From Elusimicrobiota bacterium (lineage in GTDB: Bacteria; Elusimicrobiota; Elusimicrobia; UBA1565; UBA9628): DNA of 64,000 nucleotides. The stretch covers positions 72,325-136,324 of the forward strand of contig JAHFCE010000006.1 in the NCBI GenBank assembly GCA_023249675.1, written 5' to 3'. The notes below the pieces were generated by a model that saw only the letters and a list, made by a program, of their open reading frames with translations, was not told where the DNA came from and did not search any database. Both the position numbers and the translations under genes were made by a program. Below, piece by piece: positions 5,018 through 36,029 of the stretch. Position 1 is the first letter of the stretch. Every line of letters starts with the position of its first letter.

Positions 5018-5803
5018 ATGGCGCAGAATGTATATAATGCCGCCGTGCGCAAGCCTCTCGCCGGCCGGTCTGTCATCATCACGCGCCCGCGCGCAAAATC
5101 GGGCGAAGTCGCCGCCGCCCTGGCGAAATTGGGCGCCCGTGTGATCCATGCACCTCTGATCCGTATCGTTCCTCCGCGTTCGTGGGGGCCGTTGGATGCC
5201 GCGCTCAAAACCTTCCGCCATTACGACGCCGTCGCCTTTACCAGTTCCAACTCCGTTGATTTTTTCTTTGCCCGCATGAAAAATGTTCTCGGTCGAAAGC
5301 CGGCCGCTCCTCGAGTTCTCGCCGCCGTCGGCCGCGCGACGGCGAACGCCGTTAAGAACAGTGGTTGGCGTTGTCACGTGATTCCCGAAGACGCGCACGC
5401 CGCAGGTCTCACGAAAGCGCTGCGCGTCCCGCGCGGCGCGCGCGTTCTAATTCCGCGCGCCGAGCGCGGCCTGGACACGCTTCCAAAGTCGCTGCGCACA
5501 GCCGGAGCCCGCGTCACCGTCGTCTCGGCCTATCGCACCGTTTCCGATCCGGGCGGCCTACGCTGCCTACGCCGTGCCCTCGCCCTCGGCGCGGACGCCG
5601 TCTGCTTCGCCTCCGGCTCCGCCGCCGCTCTCGGCGCTCGTGATTCGGCGTTGTCTGGCGCCGCCGCGGTCGCCATCGGCCCGACCACCGCCGCCGCTTT
5701 GCGCGCGCGGGGCGTCATCCCCGCCGCAGTCGCGAAGCGGCCCGATCCCGAATCGTTCGCCCGGGCCGTGGTCCAGGCGTTGCGAGGCCGCCCGACCGTA
5801 TGA
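5018..5803 (+). CDS. hemD: uroporphyrinogen-III synthase
   Basis: HemD-like two-lobe pattern (VIITRP, then a second half with RVLIPRAE and AVCFASGSAA). The start is placed at the ATG at 5018 with an upstream GGGGAAA; the longer ORF from 4967 overlaps the divergent ptsN start. Confidence 0.75.
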   Translation: MAQNVYNAAVRKPLAGRSVIITRPRAKSGEVAAALAKLGARVIHAPLIRIVPPRSWGPLDAALKTFRHYDAVAFTSSNSVDFFFARMKNVLGRKPAAPRVLAAVGRATANAVKNSGWRCHVIPEDAHAAGLTKALRVPRGARVLIPRAERGLDTLPKSLRTAGARVTVVSAYRTVSDPGGLRCLRRALALGADAVCFASGSAAALGARDSALSGAAAVAIGPTTAAALRARGVIPAAVAKRPDPESFARAVVQALRGRPTV

Positions 5804-6921
5804 ACGAAACTTTGATCATGGCCGGCTCGCGCACGCCGTTCGCCGCATGGAGCTTCGGCGTCACCGGACGCGGCGCGCCGGGCGGCGCGCTCAAGGAGCT
5901 CGATCCCCAGGATCTCGGCGCCGCGGCGCTCAAAGGCGCGCTCGCGCGCGCGCGCCTCTCGCCTCGCGACCTCGGTTTTGTCGCCTTCGGCAACATGTAC
6001 CAAGTCGGGCCTCATGGCTGCTACGGCGCGCGCTACGTTGCGCAACGCGCGGGCTGCCCGCCGGAAACGACCGGTGCGGCCGTCGCGCTCGCCTGCGGCA
6101 CAGGCCTCTTAGCGCTCACGACTGCCGCGGACGCCGTCGCGCGCGGCGAGGCCTCGGTCGCCGCCGCCGTGGGCGCGGACGCGCCCAGCCGCCTGCGCCG
6201 CGACATTTTCGTGCCCTCGTTCACCGACCTGTCCTGCGGCAAGCACATCGCCAAGACCGCCGAGGAACGCGCCCATGAAGCGGGACTTCCACGCGCAGCC
6301 ATGGACGCGTGGGCGCTGCGCTCGCACATGAAAGCGCGCGCCGCCTCCAGGCTTCGCGCCGAGGAAATCATCCCCGTCGCCGGCCTCGCCGATGACGACG
6401 CGATCCTCGAGAGCCCGATGCCTGAGAATTTCGCGGCGGCGAAACCCCTGTTCAGCGACGGAACGACCGTGATGACGCACGCAAACGTGCACGCCGTCGT
6501 GGACGGCGGCGCAGCGCTCATCCTCGCCGCGCCGAAAGCCGCGACAGGCCGCGCGCTCGGTCGCTTCGTTTCGTCCGCACTGGTTGGCGTCGCGCCAGAG
6601 CGCATGGCCTACGCCGCCGTGCCCGCCGTCCGCCTGGCCCTCGAGCGCGCCCGCTGGCGCGCCGCCGAGGTCGACGTCTGGGAGATCAACGAGACCTTCG
6701 CGGCACAGATCCTGCTCGATCAAGCCGAGCTCCAGATCGAAGCGGAACGCATCAATCCCAACGGCGGCGCAATCGCGCTCGGCCATCCCTTCGGCGCAAC
6801 GGGCGTGCGCCTCGTCCACACGCTTCTGCTCGAATTGCGCCGCCGGTCCCGCCGGCGCGGCGTGGCCGCCATCAGCGTCGGCGGCGGCCTCGGCATCGCC
6901 GTCTGCGTCGAAGCGCTTTAA
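5800..6921 (+). CDS. thiolase family protein (acetyl-CoA C-acyltransferase)
   Basis: Thiolase C-terminal signature NPNGGAIALGHPFGATG and ISVGGGLG are present. There is an ATGA overlap with the hemD stop. Confidence 0.85.
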   Translation: MNETLIMAGSRTPFAAWSFGVTGRGAPGGALKELDPQDLGAAALKGALARARLSPRDLGFVAFGNMYQVGPHGCYGARYVAQRAGCPPETTGAAVALACGTGLLALTTAADAVARGEASVAAAVGADAPSRLRRDIFVPSFTDLSCGKHIAKTAEERAHEAGLPRAAMDAWALRSHMKARAASRLRAEEIIPVAGLADDDAILESPMPENFAAAKPLFSDGTTVMTHANVHAVVDGGAALILAAPKAATGRALGRFVSSALVGVAPERMAYAAVPAVRLALERARWRAAEVDVWEINETFAAQILLDQAELQIEAERINPNGGAIALGHPFGATGVRLVHTLLLELRRRSRRRGVAAISVGGGLGIAVCVEAL

Positions 6922-7745
6922 AAGCGAAAGGCGATCGTGATGCGGTTGACGGTGCCGAGGGCGCCGAAGGGAATCCACGCGTAGTCAAGGCGCAGGGTGT
7001 TGAAGTCGAAGCCCGCGCCGGCGGAAACGCCGGCGAACCCATCGACGCCGCGCGTGCGGTTCTGGTCGTAGCCGCCGCGCACGCTGACGATCCAAGGTTT
7101 GGCGGAGCCGACCTTCGAAGCGGGAATGCGCGCCTCGACGCCGAGCGAGGTGTAGAGATCCTGGTCGACGGGCAGATTGACGTCGAGGCCGGCGTCGAAC
7201 GTCGGCGATAGGTGCCACAGGCCGCCGGCACGAATCCGAGCCGGCAGCGGGTCGGCGACGCCGCCGAGCTTGAGAGGCGGGCCGATGTTCGAAACCGAGA
7301 AGCCGGCATCCAGAGGGCCGTCACCGATGTCGGCGACGTTCCGGGCGAGGAGACCGAAGTCCGCGGCGGCCGTCGTGCCGCTGCGGTCGTCGAGCGTCGC
7401 ACGGATGATCTTAAGCCCGCCCGCGAGCGCGACGGGACCAGCGAGGCGGCGCGCGTACCATGCGCCGAGTGCTAGGTCCGTCGGCGTGAACTTGCCGGTC
7501 GCGTCGCCCAGGGCGTTGTACGCGGTCTGCGCGCTCTGCGACGCATAGAGCAGGCCCGCCGCAAAAGCGCCGTCGCGGCCCAGAGGACGAGCGTAGGCGA
7601 CGGAGCCGGAATAGGCGGACTCGAGCAGCGCGTCATAGCCCAGGGCGGCCTCGCTTGGGGCCTCGGCCCCGAGGCGCGAGAGCGACGCGGGATTGAGGAA
7701 CACGGCCTCGGCGCCGAGGCCCGCGGCGGCGCAAACGCCGCCCAT
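6918..7745 (-). CDS. PorV/PorQ-family-like outer membrane beta-barrel protein (paralog of the 50008-50991 gene); true start probably upstream of 7745
   Basis: Contains a GxGAxAxFLNPASL motif and a C-terminal aromatic beta-strand ending ...ITIAFRF. It shares the DYAxxPxGALG C-terminal block with the 50008 gene. The same frame stays open upstream and encodes a signal-peptide-like segment and a GTTSAAFLK block before the first ATG. Confidence 0.6.
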   Translation of the reverse strand: MGGVCAAAGLGAEAVFLNPASLSRLGAEAPSEAALGYDALLESAYSGSVAYARPLGRDGAFAAGLLYASQSAQTAYNALGDATGKFTPTDLALGAWYARRLAGPVALAGGLKIIRATLDDRSGTTAAADFGLLARNVADIGDGPLDAGFSVSNIGPPLKLGGVADPLPARIRAGGLWHLSPTFDAGLDVNLPVDQDLYTSLGVEARIPASKVGSAKPWIVSVRGGYDQNRTRGVDGFAGVSAGAGFDFNTLRLDYAWIPFGALGTVNRITIAFRF

Positions 7746-7882
7746 CGCCGAGACGCGCGCGCCGCCCGGCGATTTCAGGAAGGCAGCGCTCGTGGTTCCG
7801 GCCGCGCGCGAAGAGAATGCTCCGCTGGGAAAGAGACCGGCGCGGGCGGAAGTCGCGGCGACGACGAATGCTGCGAAAAGAC

Positions 7883-8686
7883 CTAGACGGGCCAGACCGG
7901 CCCCCGCCGCGTCTTTTCTTCGGGCGCGGGAACTTCCGGGACCAGCTCCACCTGCACCGGGGCCGGAACCTGCTCGATCGACTCCGTGACCGAAGTCTCC
8001 GGTTCCGACGAGACGGGCGGCGCGGCGATCAGCGCGCTCAACTCCATGCGGATCGTTTCATCAGGCGACAGAGCAGCCTTGGCCTTCGGCTCCGGGACGG
8101 ACTCGGGTTCAGGAGCGGCCGCGACGGTCGCGGCCGGAGCCGGAGCCTTCACGTTTTCGACGGCGCGGGTCAGCTCTCCCAAACGGTCGATCAGCGCCTC
8201 ATCGCGCGCGGCGGCCCCGTTGAGCTCATCATCCACGCGCTTGGCCAGCGCACGCATCTCTTGGCGAAGCTCGGTCAGTTCGCCCTTGATGTTCTGGAGA
8301 TGGACGACGGCGGGGCTGATGCCGCCGGTCGTATTCGCCGGATCCTTGCGGCGCTCGGGCCCCGCGTACTCGCCTTGGGGCTTGGACGTGAGTTCCGGCT
8401 CGCGGACCGGATGCGAGGCGACTGCGGCGGCCGGGGCCTCCTCGGAGATGTGCACCGGACGGACCGCCGGGGAGTTTTCCTGCTCCGCGCCCTGCTCGCT
8501 CTCAGTGACATCGGCCGCTTCGGAAGCGACGCGGTACTGACCAAGGAGGAAGAGGAAGAGGACCCCGCTGATCAGGAGCCCCGCCGACGAGATATAAAAC
8601 CAGCCGTCCGCCCAAAGTCCCATCATCATAGTAGAGGAATGGTATCCGTCCGGGGAGGTAAAGTCAACCGAACTAAATAAGTACAA
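7883..8686 (-). CDS. hypothetical membrane-anchored protein with an Ala/Pro/Glu-rich low-complexity and coiled-coil region
   Basis: 267-aa ORF with one N-terminal TM helix (LLISGVLFLFLLGQY) and a heptad-like middle segment (LTELRQEMRALAKRVDDEL). No recognisable family. Coding status is moderately uncertain in a high-GC background. Confidence 0.45.
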   Translation of the reverse strand: MYLFSSVDFTSPDGYHSSTMMMGLWADGWFYISSAGLLISGVLFLFLLGQYRVASEAADVTESEQGAEQENSPAVRPVHISEEAPAAAVASHPVREPELTSKPQGEYAGPERRKDPANTTGGISPAVVHLQNIKGELTELRQEMRALAKRVDDELNGAAARDEALIDRLGELTRAVENVKAPAPAATVAAAPEPESVPEPKAKAALSPDETIRMELSALIAAPPVSSEPETSVTESIEQVPAPVQVELVPEVPAPEEKTRRGPVWPV

Positions 8687-32553: not shown

Positions 32554-33165
32554 TTAAACCGTCTGCCCAACGAAGGTCGAGTGCGCGTACGCGGCCTTGA
32601 TCACCGCGAGGCCGAGCAGCGCCGCAAGAAGCAACGCGCCGTAGCTGAAGCCCATGCCCGCGTGATTGGCGCCGAGCATGCCGACGAGCATCGGGGCCGA
32701 CAGGTAAGTGTTCAGGCGCGAGGCGTTGCCGGCACGGGCGCGCAGCGCCGGTGCGGCGTCGCCGGCCGTGCCGCCGAGAAGCTTCTTCTGCGCGGGCCAG
32801 ATGATGAACCAGACGTTGAACCACATGATCGAGCCAAACAGCATGCCCCACATGATCCACCGCGCGCGATCAGACAGGCCGCCCTCGACGCCCTTCATGA
32901 TCATGTTCGCGCCCCAGCCGAGCTCGGGGGTATGGAGGTATATCTGCGCGAATAAGATCAGGCCGGAGAGGAAGGTCGCCATCGCGCCCCAGCGAAACCA
33001 CCACAGCGCCCGCGGCATCAGCTGCGGGTTGACGGACTTCTTGGTCGCGTCATCCATCTTGCCCTGGAGCTGACTATTGACGAAATTGAAGAAGTACAGA
33101 TGGCCGATCCAGACGATCCCCGCGAACACGTGGGTCCAACGGAACAGGAACTCGAGCTTGTTCAT
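32554..33165 (-). CDS. hypothetical aromatic-rich integral membrane protein (4-5 TM); possibly related to the membrane domain of PuuD-type proteins
   Basis: 203 aa with hydrophobic helices rich in W/F/H (HVFAGIVWIGHLYFFNFV). It is co-oriented and contiguous with the CDGSH gene. The family assignment is tentative. Confidence 0.6.
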   Translation of the reverse strand: MNKLEFLFRWTHVFAGIVWIGHLYFFNFVNSQLQGKMDDATKKSVNPQLMPRALWWFRWGAMATFLSGLILFAQIYLHTPELGWGANMIMKGVEGGLSDRARWIMWGMLFGSIMWFNVWFIIWPAQKKLLGGTAGDAAPALRARAGNASRLNTYLSAPMLVGMLGANHAGMGFSYGALLLAALLGLAVIKAAYAHSTFVGQTV

Positions 33166-33256
33166 CGCGCCTCCTTAATGTCAAATCCGCGGTGAGTCTA
33201 TCGGATTTGACGGAAGACCGTCAATCCCGCGCTCATGACAGAAACGCCCCGGCATC

Positions 33257-33285
33257 TTGACAGAAACCCGTTTCCAAGCTATTCT
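33257..33285 (+). promoter_or_regulatory. sigma70-type promoter for the AbiEi-like gene: -35 TTGACA (33257-33262), 17-nt spacer, -10 TATTCT (33280-33285)
   Basis: Read directly from the sequence. Consensus -35, ideal spacer and 4/6 on the -10. The ATG is at 33312. Confidence 0.55.
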
Positions 33286-33288
33286 AGT

Positions 33289-33310
33289 TAAGTAGCGATT
33301 AAGCTACTTA
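33289..33310. promoter_or_regulatory. palindromic operator-like inverted repeat TAAGTAGC-gattaa-GCTACTTA overlapping the predicted TSS of the AbiEi-like gene
   Basis: 8-bp perfect arms (33289-33296 and 33303-33310) separated by 6 nt, ending 1 nt before the start codon. AbiEi antitoxins are known autorepressors that bind inverted repeats. Confidence 0.45.
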
Positions 33311-33311
33311 T

Positions 33312-33923
33312 ATGAAATGGCCAGAAACGCATAGAAAGCTCGCCGCCTCGGGGCTGCTCGCGTTCACCGATCGGGAATTCCGGGCGGTGACCGGCTCGAC
33401 GCCCGTCTCGGCCAAGTTCCTGCTGATCCGCTATACGAAGAGCGGGCTCCTGCGGCGCCTCAGACGCGGCCTGTATGCCGTGGAGGGTGAGTTGCCGTCT
33501 CAATGGGCTCTCGCCAACCGCCTCTACAGGCCCTCCTACATCTCCCTCGAAACGGCTTTGTCCTACCACCACCTGATTCCGGAGACCGTCTATTCCATCA
33601 CCTCCGTGACAACCCGCGGCACGCGCGAGTTCGATGTGACGGGGACCAGCTACAGCTACAGGACGATCAAGCGCCAAGCCTTCTTTGGCTACCGCGCTGT
33701 CCAGAGGAACGGGGAGACTTTTCTGATCGCCGAGAAGGTCAAGGCGCTCGCCGACTATCTCTATCTCATCTATCTGAAAGGCGCGAAGGTCAACAGCAGG
33801 CTGCGCCTAAAAGAAGTCCCGCGCCGCGAGCTCATCGAATGCTTGGCGGCATTCGAACACCCCGGGCTCGTCGATTGGTACAAAAATGATCTCAAGATCC
33901 CAGATCACCGAATTCAGCACTAG
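33312..33923 (+). CDS. type IV toxin-antitoxin AbiEi-family antitoxin-like transcriptional regulator
   Basis: 203 aa. N-terminal wHTH-like segment, positioned immediately upstream of and overlapping an AbiEii-type nucleotidyltransferase gene. Confidence 0.65.
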   Translation: MKWPETHRKLAASGLLAFTDREFRAVTGSTPVSAKFLLIRYTKSGLLRRLRRGLYAVEGELPSQWALANRLYRPSYISLETALSYHHLIPETVYSITSVTTRGTREFDVTGTSYSYRTIKRQAFFGYRAVQRNGETFLIAEKVKALADYLYLIYLKGAKVNSRLRLKEVPRRELIECLAAFEHPGLVDWYKNDLKIPDHRIQH

Positions 33924-34611
33924 CTGGCAGACGCAGGAGCTGAGCGTCGTGCGGGAGTATGTCCAGCATGTCCTGCTGGACATCCTCTTCCAGATCAAAG
34001 GCGTCGACGCCAAGCTGGCCTTCAAAGGAGGCACGGCCCTGCGCCTGCTGCGCAACAGCCCGAGGTTCTCGGAGGACCTCGACTTCACCGGCTGGGTCAA
34101 GCCCTACCACGTGGGGGAGTGGCTCAAGCAGACCGCCAAGGAAGCCTCGCGGCATGGGCTGGATTTCAAGATGGTGGAGTCCAACGAGACCTCCGGCGGA
34201 TGGTTCGCCCTCATGGACACGCAGGTCTACGACTGGCCAGCGCGCATCGAGTGGAACGTCTCCCTGCGCGCATCAGGCAAGGCGGTGCCTCATGAGACGA
34301 CACTCGTGACGTCCCCGTTGTGGACGTCGTACTCATTGACAGCACTCGAGACGGACGAGATGGCTTCGGAGAAGATCCAGGCTCTGCTTCGCCGAAAAGA
34401 ACCGCGCGACTTTTACGACCTCTACTTTCTCATGCGCGCGCGTCTCGGCATCAAGAAGATTGTCGCCGCCAAGCCGGATTTGCTGCGCGAAACCGCCAAG
34501 CTCAACGTCAAAGAGGTCGAGCGTGAGCTCAAAGAGTTCCTTCCCCGCAACCAGCTAGCCATCGCCAAGCAGCTACGCGAGGCCCTGACGCGGGAGCTCG
34601 AACGCCTGTGA
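33886..34611 (+). CDS. nucleotidyltransferase AbiEii/AbiGii toxin family protein (DUF1814)
   Basis: Pol-beta-type nucleotidyltransferase motifs KGGTALRL ... SEDLDF and the family's C-terminal RDFYDLYFL block. It overlaps the upstream antitoxin-like gene by 38 nt. Confidence 0.8.
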   Translation: MISRSQITEFSTSWQTQELSVVREYVQHVLLDILFQIKGVDAKLAFKGGTALRLLRNSPRFSEDLDFTGWVKPYHVGEWLKQTAKEASRHGLDFKMVESNETSGGWFALMDTQVYDWPARIEWNVSLRASGKAVPHETTLVTSPLWTSYSLTALETDEMASEKIQALLRRKEPRDFYDLYFLMRARLGIKKIVAAKPDLLRETAKLNVKEVERELKEFLPRNQLAIAKQLREALTRELERL

Positions 34612-34650
34612 TCGCGCGGCGAGCGTGTCTTGCGCGCTGTTACCTAACGC

Positions 34651-34659
34651 TGTATACTA
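34651..34659 (+). promoter_or_regulatory. extended -10 promoter element TGTATACT upstream of the second two-gene module, embedded in nested inverted repeats (GTTACC...GGTAAC; CGCT...AGCG)
   Basis: TGnTATACT lies 27 nt upstream of the ATG at 34686. GTTACC (34639-34644) and GGTAAC (34675-34680), plus CGCT/AGCG, flank it symmetrically. Confidence 0.35.
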
Positions 34660-34671
34660 ATAGCGAATTCG

Positions 34672-34682
34672 TTTGGTAACCG
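34672..34682. repeat. 11-bp direct repeat TTTGGTAACCG, copy 1 (copy 2 at 35706-35716), bracketing the second nucleotidyltransferase module
   Basis: Exact 11-mer found twice, immediately 5' of the 34686 gene and 36 nt 3' of the 35670 stop. An inverted copy TTACCAAA lies at 35675-35682. Confidence 0.4.
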
Positions 34683-34685
34683 AAC

Positions 34686-35012
34686 ATGGATCCCATCAAA
34701 GGCGTGCTGGCGGAAGAACTCGTGAACTCCAAGCGGATGTTGAAGCGCCACGGAGAGGCGCTTTCACGCCTGCCGAAGGGCAGCCTCGTCGCGAAGAAGA
34801 TCAAGGGGGGCGTCTTTCATTACCTCGCCGCGCGAGAAGACGGCAAGGTCCGCTTTCATTACAAAGGGAAGCTGTCGGCCGCCGAAGTGGACAAGTATCA
34901 AGAGGCCAAGCAGCTGCGCAGAAAGTACGTTTCCCAAATCTCAAAGCTCAAGAAGCAGGTGAAATTCCTCGAGCGCGCACTCCATGAAAGAAAAAGAAAG
35001 CGCGCCGGTTGA
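34686..35012 (+). CDS. hypothetical small basic protein (108 aa), predicted partner/antitoxin-like component of the downstream nucleotidyltransferase-fold protein
   Basis: ORF with a Lys/Arg-rich coiled-coil C-terminus. It overlaps the downstream gene by 29 nt, suggesting translational coupling. No family recognised. Confidence 0.5.
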   Translation: MDPIKGVLAEELVNSKRMLKRHGEALSRLPKGSLVAKKIKGGVFHYLAAREDGKVRFHYKGKLSAAEVDKYQEAKQLRRKYVSQISKLKKQVKFLERALHERKRKRAG

Positions 35013-35670
35013 TCTGTGCCTGGAAGTCCTAAGGCGGCTGGACCGCGCCGGCGTGCTCGAGGAGCTCGTGCTCGTCGGAAGCTGGTGCACTCATTTCTAC
35101 AATCGCTATTTCGAGGGCAAGGCCAAGCTCTCCGCCCTCCGGACGCGCGACATGGACTTCCTGGTGCGCCGACCTCCTCGCTTCAAGGTAAAGGTCGAAG
35201 TCTCCACCCTACTGAAGGACCTCGGCTTCCTTCCAGACCTCCGGCCGGAGGGCTACGTCAGCTTGAGCCACCCAGATTTGATCATCGACTTTCTGATCGC
35301 CGAGAGGGGGAAAGGTTCCGAGATGGCGATCCCGATCGAGGCGCTAGGCATCCGCGCCCAGCCGCTGCGTTTTCTCGACTTCCTCACGCGCGATACGATC
35401 GTCGTGAGCATCGACGGCCTCGATTTGCAGCTGCCGCATCCGGCCAACTTCGCCCTTCACAAGCTCATTATCAGCAGCCGTCGACCAAAGCCCGAGAAGC
35501 GCGAGAAAGATCTCAGACAGGCTCTCGAGATTCTCGACGTCCTCAGAGATCTTGGCCGCGGAGAAGAGATTCTCTCCAAGTTCGCGGATATGCCCGCTGG
35601 CTGGCGCAAAATCGCGATTACGGTGCTCAACGACGCGGACCGGCACGATATTTCACGATTCTTGCAGTAG
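34984..35670 (+). CDS. nucleotidyltransferase-fold protein (minimal pol-beta-like NTase motif GS...DxD), uncharacterised family
   Basis: 228 aa. LVLVGSWCTHFY ... RTRDMDFLV matches the hG[GS] ... [DE]h[DE]h nucleotidyltransferase signature. A C-terminal roughly 110-aa helical extension is present. Confidence 0.6.
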   Translation: MKEKESAPVDLCLEVLRRLDRAGVLEELVLVGSWCTHFYNRYFEGKAKLSALRTRDMDFLVRRPPRFKVKVEVSTLLKDLGFLPDLRPEGYVSLSHPDLIIDFLIAERGKGSEMAIPIEALGIRAQPLRFLDFLTRDTIVVSIDGLDLQLPHPANFALHKLIISSRRPKPEKREKDLRQALEILDVLRDLGRGEEILSKFADMPAGWRKIAITVLNDADRHDISRFLQ

Positions 35671-35705
35671 AGATTACCAAACAGCAGGAGCTGATCCATT
35701 GCGCA

Positions 35706-35716
35706 TTTGGTAACCG
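35706..35716. repeat. 11-bp direct repeat TTTGGTAACCG, copy 2
   Basis: Identical to 34672-34682. Confidence 0.4.
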
Positions 35717-35732
35717 CCCGCCCTGCTCGAAC

Positions 35733-35761
35733 TTGACCCGTCGCTTGCGCTCGTCTATACT
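35733..35761 (+). promoter_or_regulatory. orphan near-consensus sigma70 promoter TTGACC-17 nt-TATACT about 195 nt upstream of tRNA-Gly
   Basis: -35 at 35733-35738, 17-nt spacer, -10 at 35756-35761. No protein gene follows before the tRNA. The downstream region is AT-rich with a short TCGAC/GTCGA hairpin and a T-run. Confidence 0.4.
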
Positions 35762-35867
35762 GTCTACAACCCTGGCGAGAGTTGTCCCAGGATCAGGCAT
35801 TAGGTCTTTGATATCTCGACTGCAAGCAGGAATTTTCGCGCCGAGATCAACAGCCGATTTTTGAAAC

Positions 35868-35890
35868 CTCGACAAAAAGTCGACAAAAAT
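35868..35890. repeat. tandem 11-nt repeat (C)TCGACAAAAAG / TCGACAAAAAT with phased A-tracts, followed by a T6 run
   Basis: Two adjacent copies, each containing a SalI-like GTCGAC/TCGAC palindrome and an A5 tract. They sit in the locally AT-rich segment just upstream of the tRNA. Confidence 0.4.
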
Positions 35891-35955
35891 TGTTTTTTAA
35901 GAGCCATTCCAAACGCTCATCACTCTTAAAAAGTAGTTATTAAATAAACACTTTC

Positions 35956-36029
35956 GCGGGTGTAGTTCAATGGTAGAACGAGAGCTTCCCAAGCTTTAGA
36001 CGTGGGTTCGATTCCCATCACCCGCTCCA
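35956..36029 (+). tRNA. tRNA-Gly (anticodon CCC)
   Basis: Manually folded cloverleaf. Acceptor GCGGGTG/CACCCGC, D-arm GTTC..GAAC, anticodon stem AGAGC/GCTTT with loop TTCCCAA (anticodon CCC), short 4-nt variable loop, T-arm GTGGG-TTCGATT-CCCAT and an encoded CCA. Confidence 0.9.

Follow-up and report, generated by a model that had tools for sequence, protein, structure and literature searches.

A window of 64,000 nucleotides (nt) from an Elusimicrobiota bacterium (contig JAHFCE010000006.1 of GenBank assembly GCA_023249675.1, positions 72,325 to 136,324; all coordinates below are those of the window) was analyzed with respect to a two-gene module, here termed module 2 or pair 2, which encodes a basic protein of 108 amino acids and a nucleotidyltransferase of 228 amino acids and is a good candidate for a toxin-antitoxin or defense system. 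Module 2 is the second of two consecutive overlapping gene pairs, four open reading frames on the plus strand, that lie between a gene for a PuuD-like membrane protein and tRNA-Gly(CCC). This layout had been described in an initial annotation of the DNA, and all of the reading frames were found as described there. Judged by analogy, module 2 would be a MenAT/AbiE-like toxin-antitoxin in which the small protein represses the operon and neutralizes a MenT-like nucleotidyltransferase, a reading to which we give an even chance.

The enzyme gene (34984..35670, +) overlaps the gene of the 108-residue protein (34686..35012, +) by 29 nt. The 228-residue protein can be assigned with confidence to Pfam PF12281 NTP_transf_8 (E 1.7e-28, 100.5 bits against a cut-off of 26.3 bits), and its homologues carry the NCBI name 'GSU2403 family nucleotidyltransferase fold protein'. 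The initial annotation, which could name no family for it, was therefore wrong on this point. PF12281 is catalogued but uncharacterized, with no described function, partner or regulation: literature searches on PF12281, NTP_transf_8, GSU2403, DUF6788 and PF20586 returned a single mention, of GSU2403, which an expression table lists as a 'hypothetical protein'. For the 108-residue protein a precomputed match to Pfam PF20586 DUF6788 is flagged 'weak', and in hmmscan DUF6788 was found in 3 of 30 homologues (best E 0.033), the protein of the window not being among them. PADLOC, NCBIfam and PHROGs yielded no usable match for either protein of the pair, and sequence searches of the proteins and their profiles against the PDB gave no match.

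The two pairs of the window have the same gene layout and their enzymes the same fold class, with analogous S/T-x-D-x-D and K...D motifs, as would be expected if pair 2 were a diverged second copy of AbiEi/AbiEii. Neither of its proteins, however, matched PF08843, AbiEi_4 or the PADLOC AbiEi and AbiEii models at E<=1, and the partner, with 108 residues folded as a helical hairpin with a beta-meander, is not the COG5340 winged-helix protein of AbiE. Aligned by hhalign, the NTP_transf_8 and AbiEii (DUF1814) profiles showed no link (probability 0.35%). Because of this negative result the idea of a diverged AbiE duplicate was dropped, its chance of being correct being negligible; on this point the reading of the second pair in the initial annotation is supported.

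The structure of the 228-residue enzyme was predicted with high confidence and has a pol-beta fold. In the structural comparison, the figures were 13.4 for 5uvd (a fungal nucleotidyltransferase-like protein), 11.8 for MenT1, 10.7 for MenT3/TglT, 10.0 each for ANT(2'')-Ia and MenT4, 9.7 for TM1012, 9.3 for LnuA and 9.2 for JHP933. The closest functionally characterized structures are the tRNA-modifying toxins MenT1, MenT3 and MenT4. In 31 homologues G32-S33, T54, D56, D58, E107, K160, R166, R167, K172 and D176 were invariant, and R55 was nearly so. The GS...DMDF motif of the initial annotation is thus present (G32-S33 and D56-M-D58-F), whereas the 'unassigned C-terminal extension' mentioned with it is a helical domain bearing the conserved K160...D176 and not an add-on.

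In MenT1 the key residues are T39, R40, D41, K137 and D152, with T39 as the auto-phosphorylation site, R40 in contact with the phosphates and D41 as metal ligand (PMC11375011). As assigned by motif order and spacing and not by residue-level superposition, T54-R55-D56 of the 228-residue protein matches T39-R40-D41, and K160/D176 matches K137/D152, the spacing from Lys to Asp being 16 here and 15 in MenT1. From the shared T-R-D motif and the Lys-Asp spacing the enzyme is predicted to be active and to carry, as T54, the residue by which MenA antitoxins silence MenT. Of the features that define MenT-like enzymes, the pol-beta fold and the hG[GS], S/T-x-D-x-D, Lys and Asp motifs were found, and membership in DUF1814 by sequence was not.

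The partner protein had been described as Lys/Arg-rich, and indeed 27.8% of its residues are Lys or Arg and its isoelectric point is 10.5. The AlphaFold2 model (predicted local distance difference test score 91) contains a helix (residues 3-27), three strands (33-39, 42-51 and 54-61) and a second helix (65-107); the two helices form a long antiparallel hairpin and the three strands a beta-meander at its tip (residues 33-61). The protein is predicted to be an operator-binding antitoxin or a partner subunit, and the 228-residue enzyme the effector or toxin.

In HepT/MntA the nucleotidyltransferase acts as the antitoxin, and this precedent raises the question of whether the roles are reversed in module 2, as in a type VII HEPN-MNT-like system in which the enzyme would nucleotidylate a toxic small protein. 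Relatives of the 108-residue domain were found fused to other domains, in P0444 (209 residues) to an NTP_transf_2 domain of the MNT (minimal nucleotidyltransferase) type, which fits such a reversal, and in P0405 (530 residues) to Peripla_BP_3 and AraC-HTH; together these fusions suggest that it is a portable partner or DNA-binding domain. The small protein, however, has neither a HEPN Rx4-6H motif nor a known toxin fold. Its position as the first gene, its strongly basic character and the conserved operator that goes with it all fit an antitoxin or regulator, and the enzyme resembles the MenT toxins and not a minimal MNT. A reversal of roles is accordingly considered very unlikely.

Pair 2 was found at 296 loci in a scan of one genome per species, and 80 of these were retrieved for analysis of the neighborhood. 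In 79 of the 80 the enzyme gene is immediately preceded by a gene for a homologue of the 108-residue protein, with an overlap that in most cases measures 20 or 29 nt; the single exception is cut by the end of the contig. The hosts include Elusimicrobiota, Planctomycetota, Omnitrophota, Nitrospirota, Margulisiibacteriota and Clostridia, the closest relatives of the window being metagenome-assembled genomes of Elusimicrobiota. No neighboring gene is conserved (416 of 464 neighbor clusters are singletons). Of 60 loci, 7 have a gene for a tRNA or tmRNA at a distance of no more than 500 nt, where a rough model predicts about 1.7% per locus (P ~6e-5). Genes of toxin-antitoxin systems, defense and mobility recur in the neighborhood: AbiE genes were detected near pair 2 at loci L045, L047, L060 and L068, a RES-Xre pair beside the closest homologue (L083), ParD and Fic near a homologue in Agrobacterium vitis, and PDC-S01, GIY-YIG, integrases, Fic, HEPN and HNH among the other neighbors. 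The family of the 108-residue protein comprises 1020 representatives of clusters at 50% identity (E<=1e-3). Two overlapping genes that are conserved as an operon and move together, a generic mark of toxin-antitoxin systems, are thus present, and as judged from these loci pair 2 is a strict, separately mobile two-gene module of approximately 34612-35850.

At one of these loci, L045 (Pirellulales), the NTP_transf_8 frame (L045:6133-6606) is truncated at its 5' end, the first in-frame start lying 115 nt past the stop codon of the partner gene. The partner gene itself is intact and an AbiE pair follows directly downstream; the frame may represent a decayed effector.

Upstream of the small gene a promoter-operator not described before was identified, with the shared layout TTGACA-N4-GTTACCwwAC-~4 nt-TATAnT-~12 nt-GTwwGGTAAC. 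The starts of the two arms are 32 nt apart (33 in four loci), the left arm being located in the spacer between the -35 and -10 boxes and the right arm between the -10 box and the start codon. When up to 3 mismatches were allowed over the 16 fixed positions, the layout was recovered in 69 of 78 loci, with 2 background matches in the 674 kb elsewhere in the same loci. In the window it occupies 34630..34680 (+) and consists of the -35 box TTGCGC (34630-34635), the left arm GTTACCTAAC (34639-34648), the -10 box TATACT (34653-34658) and the right arm GTTTGGTAAC (34671-34680), followed by the ATG at 34686. The promoter scan missed this promoter, TTGCGC-17-TATACT (34630-34658), whose -35 box is weak; its register agrees with that of the TTGACA/TATAnT consensus derived from 41 related loci. 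Pair 1 too is preceded by a sigma-70-like promoter, and the initial annotation had claimed 'own strong promoters' for the segment.

Between the arms the central dinucleotides co-vary (AT/AT 19, TA/TA 8, AA/TT 5, CA/TG 2). The sequence TTACCWWAC occurs three times in the 64-kb window against 0.11 expected, and all three occurrences flank module 2. A second copy of the repeat, ATTACCAAAC-N22-ATTTGGTAAC, is located at 35673..35714 (+), three bases past the stop codon of the enzyme gene and with the same 32-nt spacing. Of 77 loci, 75 lack this downstream copy, which was seen in the window and in the closest relative (L083:8695-8737) alone; it might act as a secondary operator or a terminator-like hairpin, or be left over from a tandem copy. 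Most simply, the upstream repeat can be read as the site at which the small protein, as a symmetric oligomer, would repress its own operon; the spacing of 32 bp (about 109 Å) would suit two beta-meander heads kept apart by the long helices of the model.

The inverted repeats might instead serve to move or process the cassette, either as sites of recombination or mobility (ends of the attC-like or MITE-like kind) or as a hairpin in the RNA. In the window and in L083 the cassette is indeed bracketed by the second repeat copy, the TAAC/TTAGG variant resembles the RYYYAAC and GTTRRRY cores of integrons, and changes that preserve the complementarity of the arms would fit a hairpin too. In nearly all loci, however, 4 nt separate the -35 box from the left arm and the -10 box falls between the arms, so that a transcript would hold only the right arm. 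ATAC, the most frequent variant, deviates from RYYYAAC, and among the immediate neighbors no gene for an integron integrase was detected. An attC site usually measures 57-141 nt. The integron reading was rejected on account of the 42-nt span of the repeat, which is below this range, its upstream position around the -10 box and the occurrence of the downstream copy in only 2 of 77 loci; overall, a mobility or hairpin function of the repeats is regarded as highly improbable.

Distant homologues of the enzyme (about 30% identity) were found on 284 plasmids, mostly of Rhizobiaceae, 173 of which are conjugative. On the rhizobial plasmids the homologue is a single protein of 350-370 residues in which the partner domain is N-terminal to NTP_transf_8 (e.g. 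L169:3701-4750, L170:3701-4804 and L171-L176). PF12281 covers residues ~104-318 of these proteins, with scores of 245-246 bits, and the N-terminal ~100 residues have the same order of helix, beta-meander and helix as the 108-residue protein. Alignment of the 108-residue protein with this domain by hhalign gave a probability of 80% (E 1.3e-5), in register (columns 29-74 to 30-76). In the fused genes, too, inverted repeats span a TATACT-like -10 box, and the half-site of L169, GTGACCATAAC, resembles GTTACCATAC. The fusion provides Rosetta-stone evidence that the 108- and 228-residue proteins work as a complex, and it means that the role of a labile antidote is not the only one conceivable for the small protein.

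Module 2 could also be non-toxic, i.e. a nucleotidyltransferase of two subunits (a single chain in rhizobia) whose basic domain binds or targets nucleic acid and autoregulates the operon, and which modifies small molecules or antibiotics like ANT(2'') and Lnu or repairs or tags RNA or DNA ends. The fused homologues of 350-370 residues are common on rhizobial plasmids, many neighbors of the module are housekeeping genes, no defense-system model matched, and the antibiotic nucleotidyltransferases are structurally as close as the toxins. On the other hand, the strict coupling, the operator embedded in the promoter, the patchy mobile distribution, the adjacency to tRNA or tmRNA genes and the repeated toxin-antitoxin neighbors are typical of toxin-antitoxin systems, the invariant T-R-D-x-D with its phospho-acceptor threonine agrees with MenT1, and toxin-antitoxins can occur in fused form, as in CapRel. 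We therefore consider a non-toxic function rather unlikely, although clearly less so than the alternatives discussed above.

For a toxin-antitoxin of the MenAT/AbiE type the following mechanism is proposed. A 10-bp inverted repeat, which brackets a sigma-70-type promoter with one arm on either side of the -10 box, would be bound by the basic 108-residue protein, probably as a dimer spanning three helical turns, and the operon would thereby be repressed. The translationally coupled 228-residue enzyme would be an active pol-beta nucleotidyltransferase, which, once freed, could add nucleotides to the 3' ends of tRNA or other RNA and thus cause translation arrest. Neutralization would occur by direct binding of the 108-residue protein to the enzyme, possibly inducing auto-phosphorylation of T54, like MenA1 acts on T39 of MenT1. 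A more far-reaching proposal, which we make tentatively and with somewhat less than even confidence, is that the 108-residue protein and NTP_transf_8 constitute a new and widespread family of nucleotidyltransferase toxin-antitoxin or abortive-infection systems, split and fused, of about 1000 clusters at 50% identity in many phyla, with an undescribed type of DNA-binding antitoxin (a beta-meander on a helical hairpin) that would read two 10-bp half-sites 32 bp apart and silence a MenT-like, RNA-modifying toxin.

Several observations weigh against a toxin-antitoxin function. No PADLOC model matched the pair-2 proteins, the hhalign comparison with AbiEii was negative as mentioned, no homologue of the enzyme was found in the phage collection, and the literature searches revealed no report of toxicity, neutralization or phage defense for the family. 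The predicted fold of the 108-residue protein gave no informative structural match. Residues 33 and 36, in the first beta-strand of this protein, track the operator variant best, but columns of the enzyme do so nearly as well and the variant classes follow phylogeny. Finally, the single-chain fusions, which form a large clade, are equally consistent with an enzyme of two domains and with a toxin-antitoxin in fused form.

Pair 1, upstream of module 2, can be classified as an ordinary AbiEi/AbiEii type IV toxin-antitoxin or abortive-infection cassette. AbiEi, the antitoxin and transcriptional regulator (203 residues; 33312..33923, +), matched PADLOC AbiEi (1.5e-42), Pfam AbiEi_4 (5e-6) and NCBIfam TAA_AbiEi (1.7e-8, under the cut-off of that model). 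The nucleotidyltransferase toxin AbiEii (DUF1814; 241 residues; 33886..34611, +), whose gene overlaps abiEi by 38 nt, matched Pfam PF08843 (6.3e-25) and PADLOC AbiEii (8.6e-29), and G48-G49, S62-E-D64-L-D66, K163 and D175 are invariant among 31 homologues. The pair had been recognized as AbiE from the outset; the 'small upstream partner' ascribed to each pair needs correction here, as AbiEi with its 203 residues is not small. At the start of the cassette (33234..33311, +), a sigma-70-like promoter, TTGACA-17-TATTCT (33257-33285), was found by the promoter scan. A repeat search revealed a pair of direct repeats of 20 nt, at 33226-33245 and 33248-33267, as well as a palindrome, AAGTAGC-N6-GCTACTT, immediately 5' of the abiEi ATG. 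An AbiEii with 90% identity was observed elsewhere between gyrA and an archease-RtcB cluster (L165:2471-3196); upstream of it only the 3' end of abiEi remains (homology from window position 33773), and it is apparently an orphan toxin gene.

Both pairs are part of a segment of approximately 33226-35955 that is best explained as a composite, horizontally acquired islet inserted between the PuuD-like gene (32554..33165, -; Pfam Urate_ox_N, 1e-26), a host gene on the left flank, and tRNA-Gly(CCC) (35956..36029, +; ARAGORN, Rfam tRNA 72 bits), which forms the right border. In a comparison of 613 windows of the same size, the segment 33166-35955 had the lowest GC content (57.5%, against 65.0% for the whole window) and the largest tetranucleotide distance (0.326; mean 0.198, standard deviation 0.036). 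In L085 and L089, which encode PuuD-like proteins 69-77% identical to that of the window, the islet is missing and the tRNA-Gly gene (97% identical) lies 122 nt from the PuuD-like start. The DNA upstream of the tRNA is GC-rich there and contains a TTGACG-17-TACAAT promoter, while the DNA directly 5' of the tRNA in the window is AT-rich and unrelated to it. The borders and the foreign origin of the segment, both proposed in the initial annotation, are thus supported: its 2.8 kb are the most atypical of the window, and the site is empty in these relatives.

The AbiE cassette (33234-34607) recurs with 88% nucleotide identity in L166 and 78% in L167 and L168, the homology starting at 33234 with L166 and at 33256 with L167. 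At these three loci the cassette directly adjoins tRNA-Gly(CCC) without module 2, and in L167 and L168 a tyrosine integrase is encoded just 5' of AbiEi (island region L167:6155-8923). The contig of L166 starts with nt 8-37 of the tRNA (positions 1-30) and ends with nt 1-24 (positions 5430-5453); with the 5' half of the tRNA at both ends, the island appears to be flanked by a tRNA 5'-half repeat. The copy of nt 8-37 ends in the anticodon loop. About 70 nt 5' of the tRNA, the motif CTCGACA(G)AAAAGTCGACAAAAA (in the window CTCGACAAAAAGTCGACAAAAA, 35868..35889, +) is invariant in alignments of the window with L166, L167 and L168, while unrelated GC-rich sequence takes its place in the islet-free relatives. 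By these comparisons, the motif marks the tRNA-proximal end of the element, and the AbiE cassette can be assigned to a family of islands sited 5' of tRNA-Gly(CCC).

Absence from the same site in relatives, as expected of a tRNA-targeted integrative island, was observed, but against such an island speaks that the window contains neither an integrase nor a tRNA-fragment repeat at the left junction of the islet. As the islet is located 5' of the tRNA and lacks an integrase, it is at most the remnant of an integrative element. What the window carries can be described as what is left of an element that is associated with tRNA-Gly, is situated on the 5' side of this tRNA and provides its upstream region. 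It would be unusual for an element to contribute the upstream region and the 5' half of a tRNA and not its 3' part.

Module 2 is placed between AbiEii and the end of this element. The view of the islet as one unit cannot be maintained, as the AbiE cassette is found elsewhere without pair 2 and pair 2 alone in about 80 unrelated contexts; the two pairs are rather to be seen as independent cassettes that became adjacent.

Between the enzyme gene and the tRNA there is a gap of 285 nt, in which the promoter scan detected a promoter-like site, TTGACC-17-TATACT (35733..35761, +). Behind it the only Rfam match was the tRNA, and open reading frames were short and unconserved. The site could drive the tRNA via a long leader, or a small RNA. 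Elsewhere in the window, the region 5500-8000 has a GC content of 70-74% (mean 65%) and gives the second-largest tetranucleotide deviation. A compositional outlier at 5.0-5.6 kb was rejected as an island because it reflects this adjoining high-GC stretch at 5.5-8 kb.

Nucleotidyltransferase toxins such as AbiEii and MenT are among the commonest effectors of toxin-antitoxin and defense systems; they extend the 3' ends of tRNAs and block translation, and their control via antitoxin-induced auto-phosphorylation is a current focus. AbiE itself and the stacking of small toxin-antitoxin cassettes at a tRNA hot-spot, of which the islet is an ordinary case, are not exceptional, and module 2 is to be regarded as a testable lead and not as a major surprise. 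If the proposal is correct, module 2 would be a sequence-unrelated branch of these toxins with the same catalytic signature and a completely different partner, PF12281, now a name only, would obtain a function, and the annotation of defense and toxin-antitoxin genes in metagenomes would improve. Further work on the module could make use of its sharply delimited operator, of which variants in specificity exist in nature, of the naturally occurring split and fused versions, and of homologues that number in the hundreds, both in uncultured phyla and on plasmids of rhizobia.

Among the known systems, MenAT1 of M. tuberculosis (MenA1-MenT1, Rv0078B-Rv0078A) resembles pair 2 in that a short, mainly helical partner is encoded 5' of a compact pol-beta nucleotidyltransferase of about 200 residues with the corresponding active-site residues, although no sequence similarity to pair 2 was detectable. 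MenA1 has 68 residues, is predicted to be without a DNA-binding domain and is reported to act post-transcriptionally (PMC10435456, PMC11375011), whereas the partner in pair 2 has 108 residues with a beta-meander and a matching conserved operator. AbiE, of which pair 1 is a true member, and MenAT3 and MenAT4 (COG5340-DUF1814) are likewise bicistronic with overlapping genes, their nucleotidyltransferases contain the G[GS], S/T-x-D-x-D and K...D motifs, and according to the literature their partner autoregulates by binding inverted repeats in the promoter. They differ from pair 2 in that their enzyme belongs to PF08843 and not PF12281, and in that their partner is a COG5340 winged-helix protein and not a hairpin with a three-stranded sheet.

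ANT(2'')-Ia, LnuA and TM1012 are encoded by stand-alone genes without an obligatory overlapping partner and have no sequence similarity to the 228-residue protein; ANT(2'')-Ia and LnuA have resistance functions. Within PF12281 itself, the high-scoring rhizobial proteins represent the fused form and the window the split form. CapRel is a fused toxin-antitoxin, and the rhizobial homologues similarly join partner domain and enzyme in one chain, from which auto-inhibition within the polypeptide could follow. The folds and the chemistry of the two are unrelated, and nothing here points to a phage trigger.

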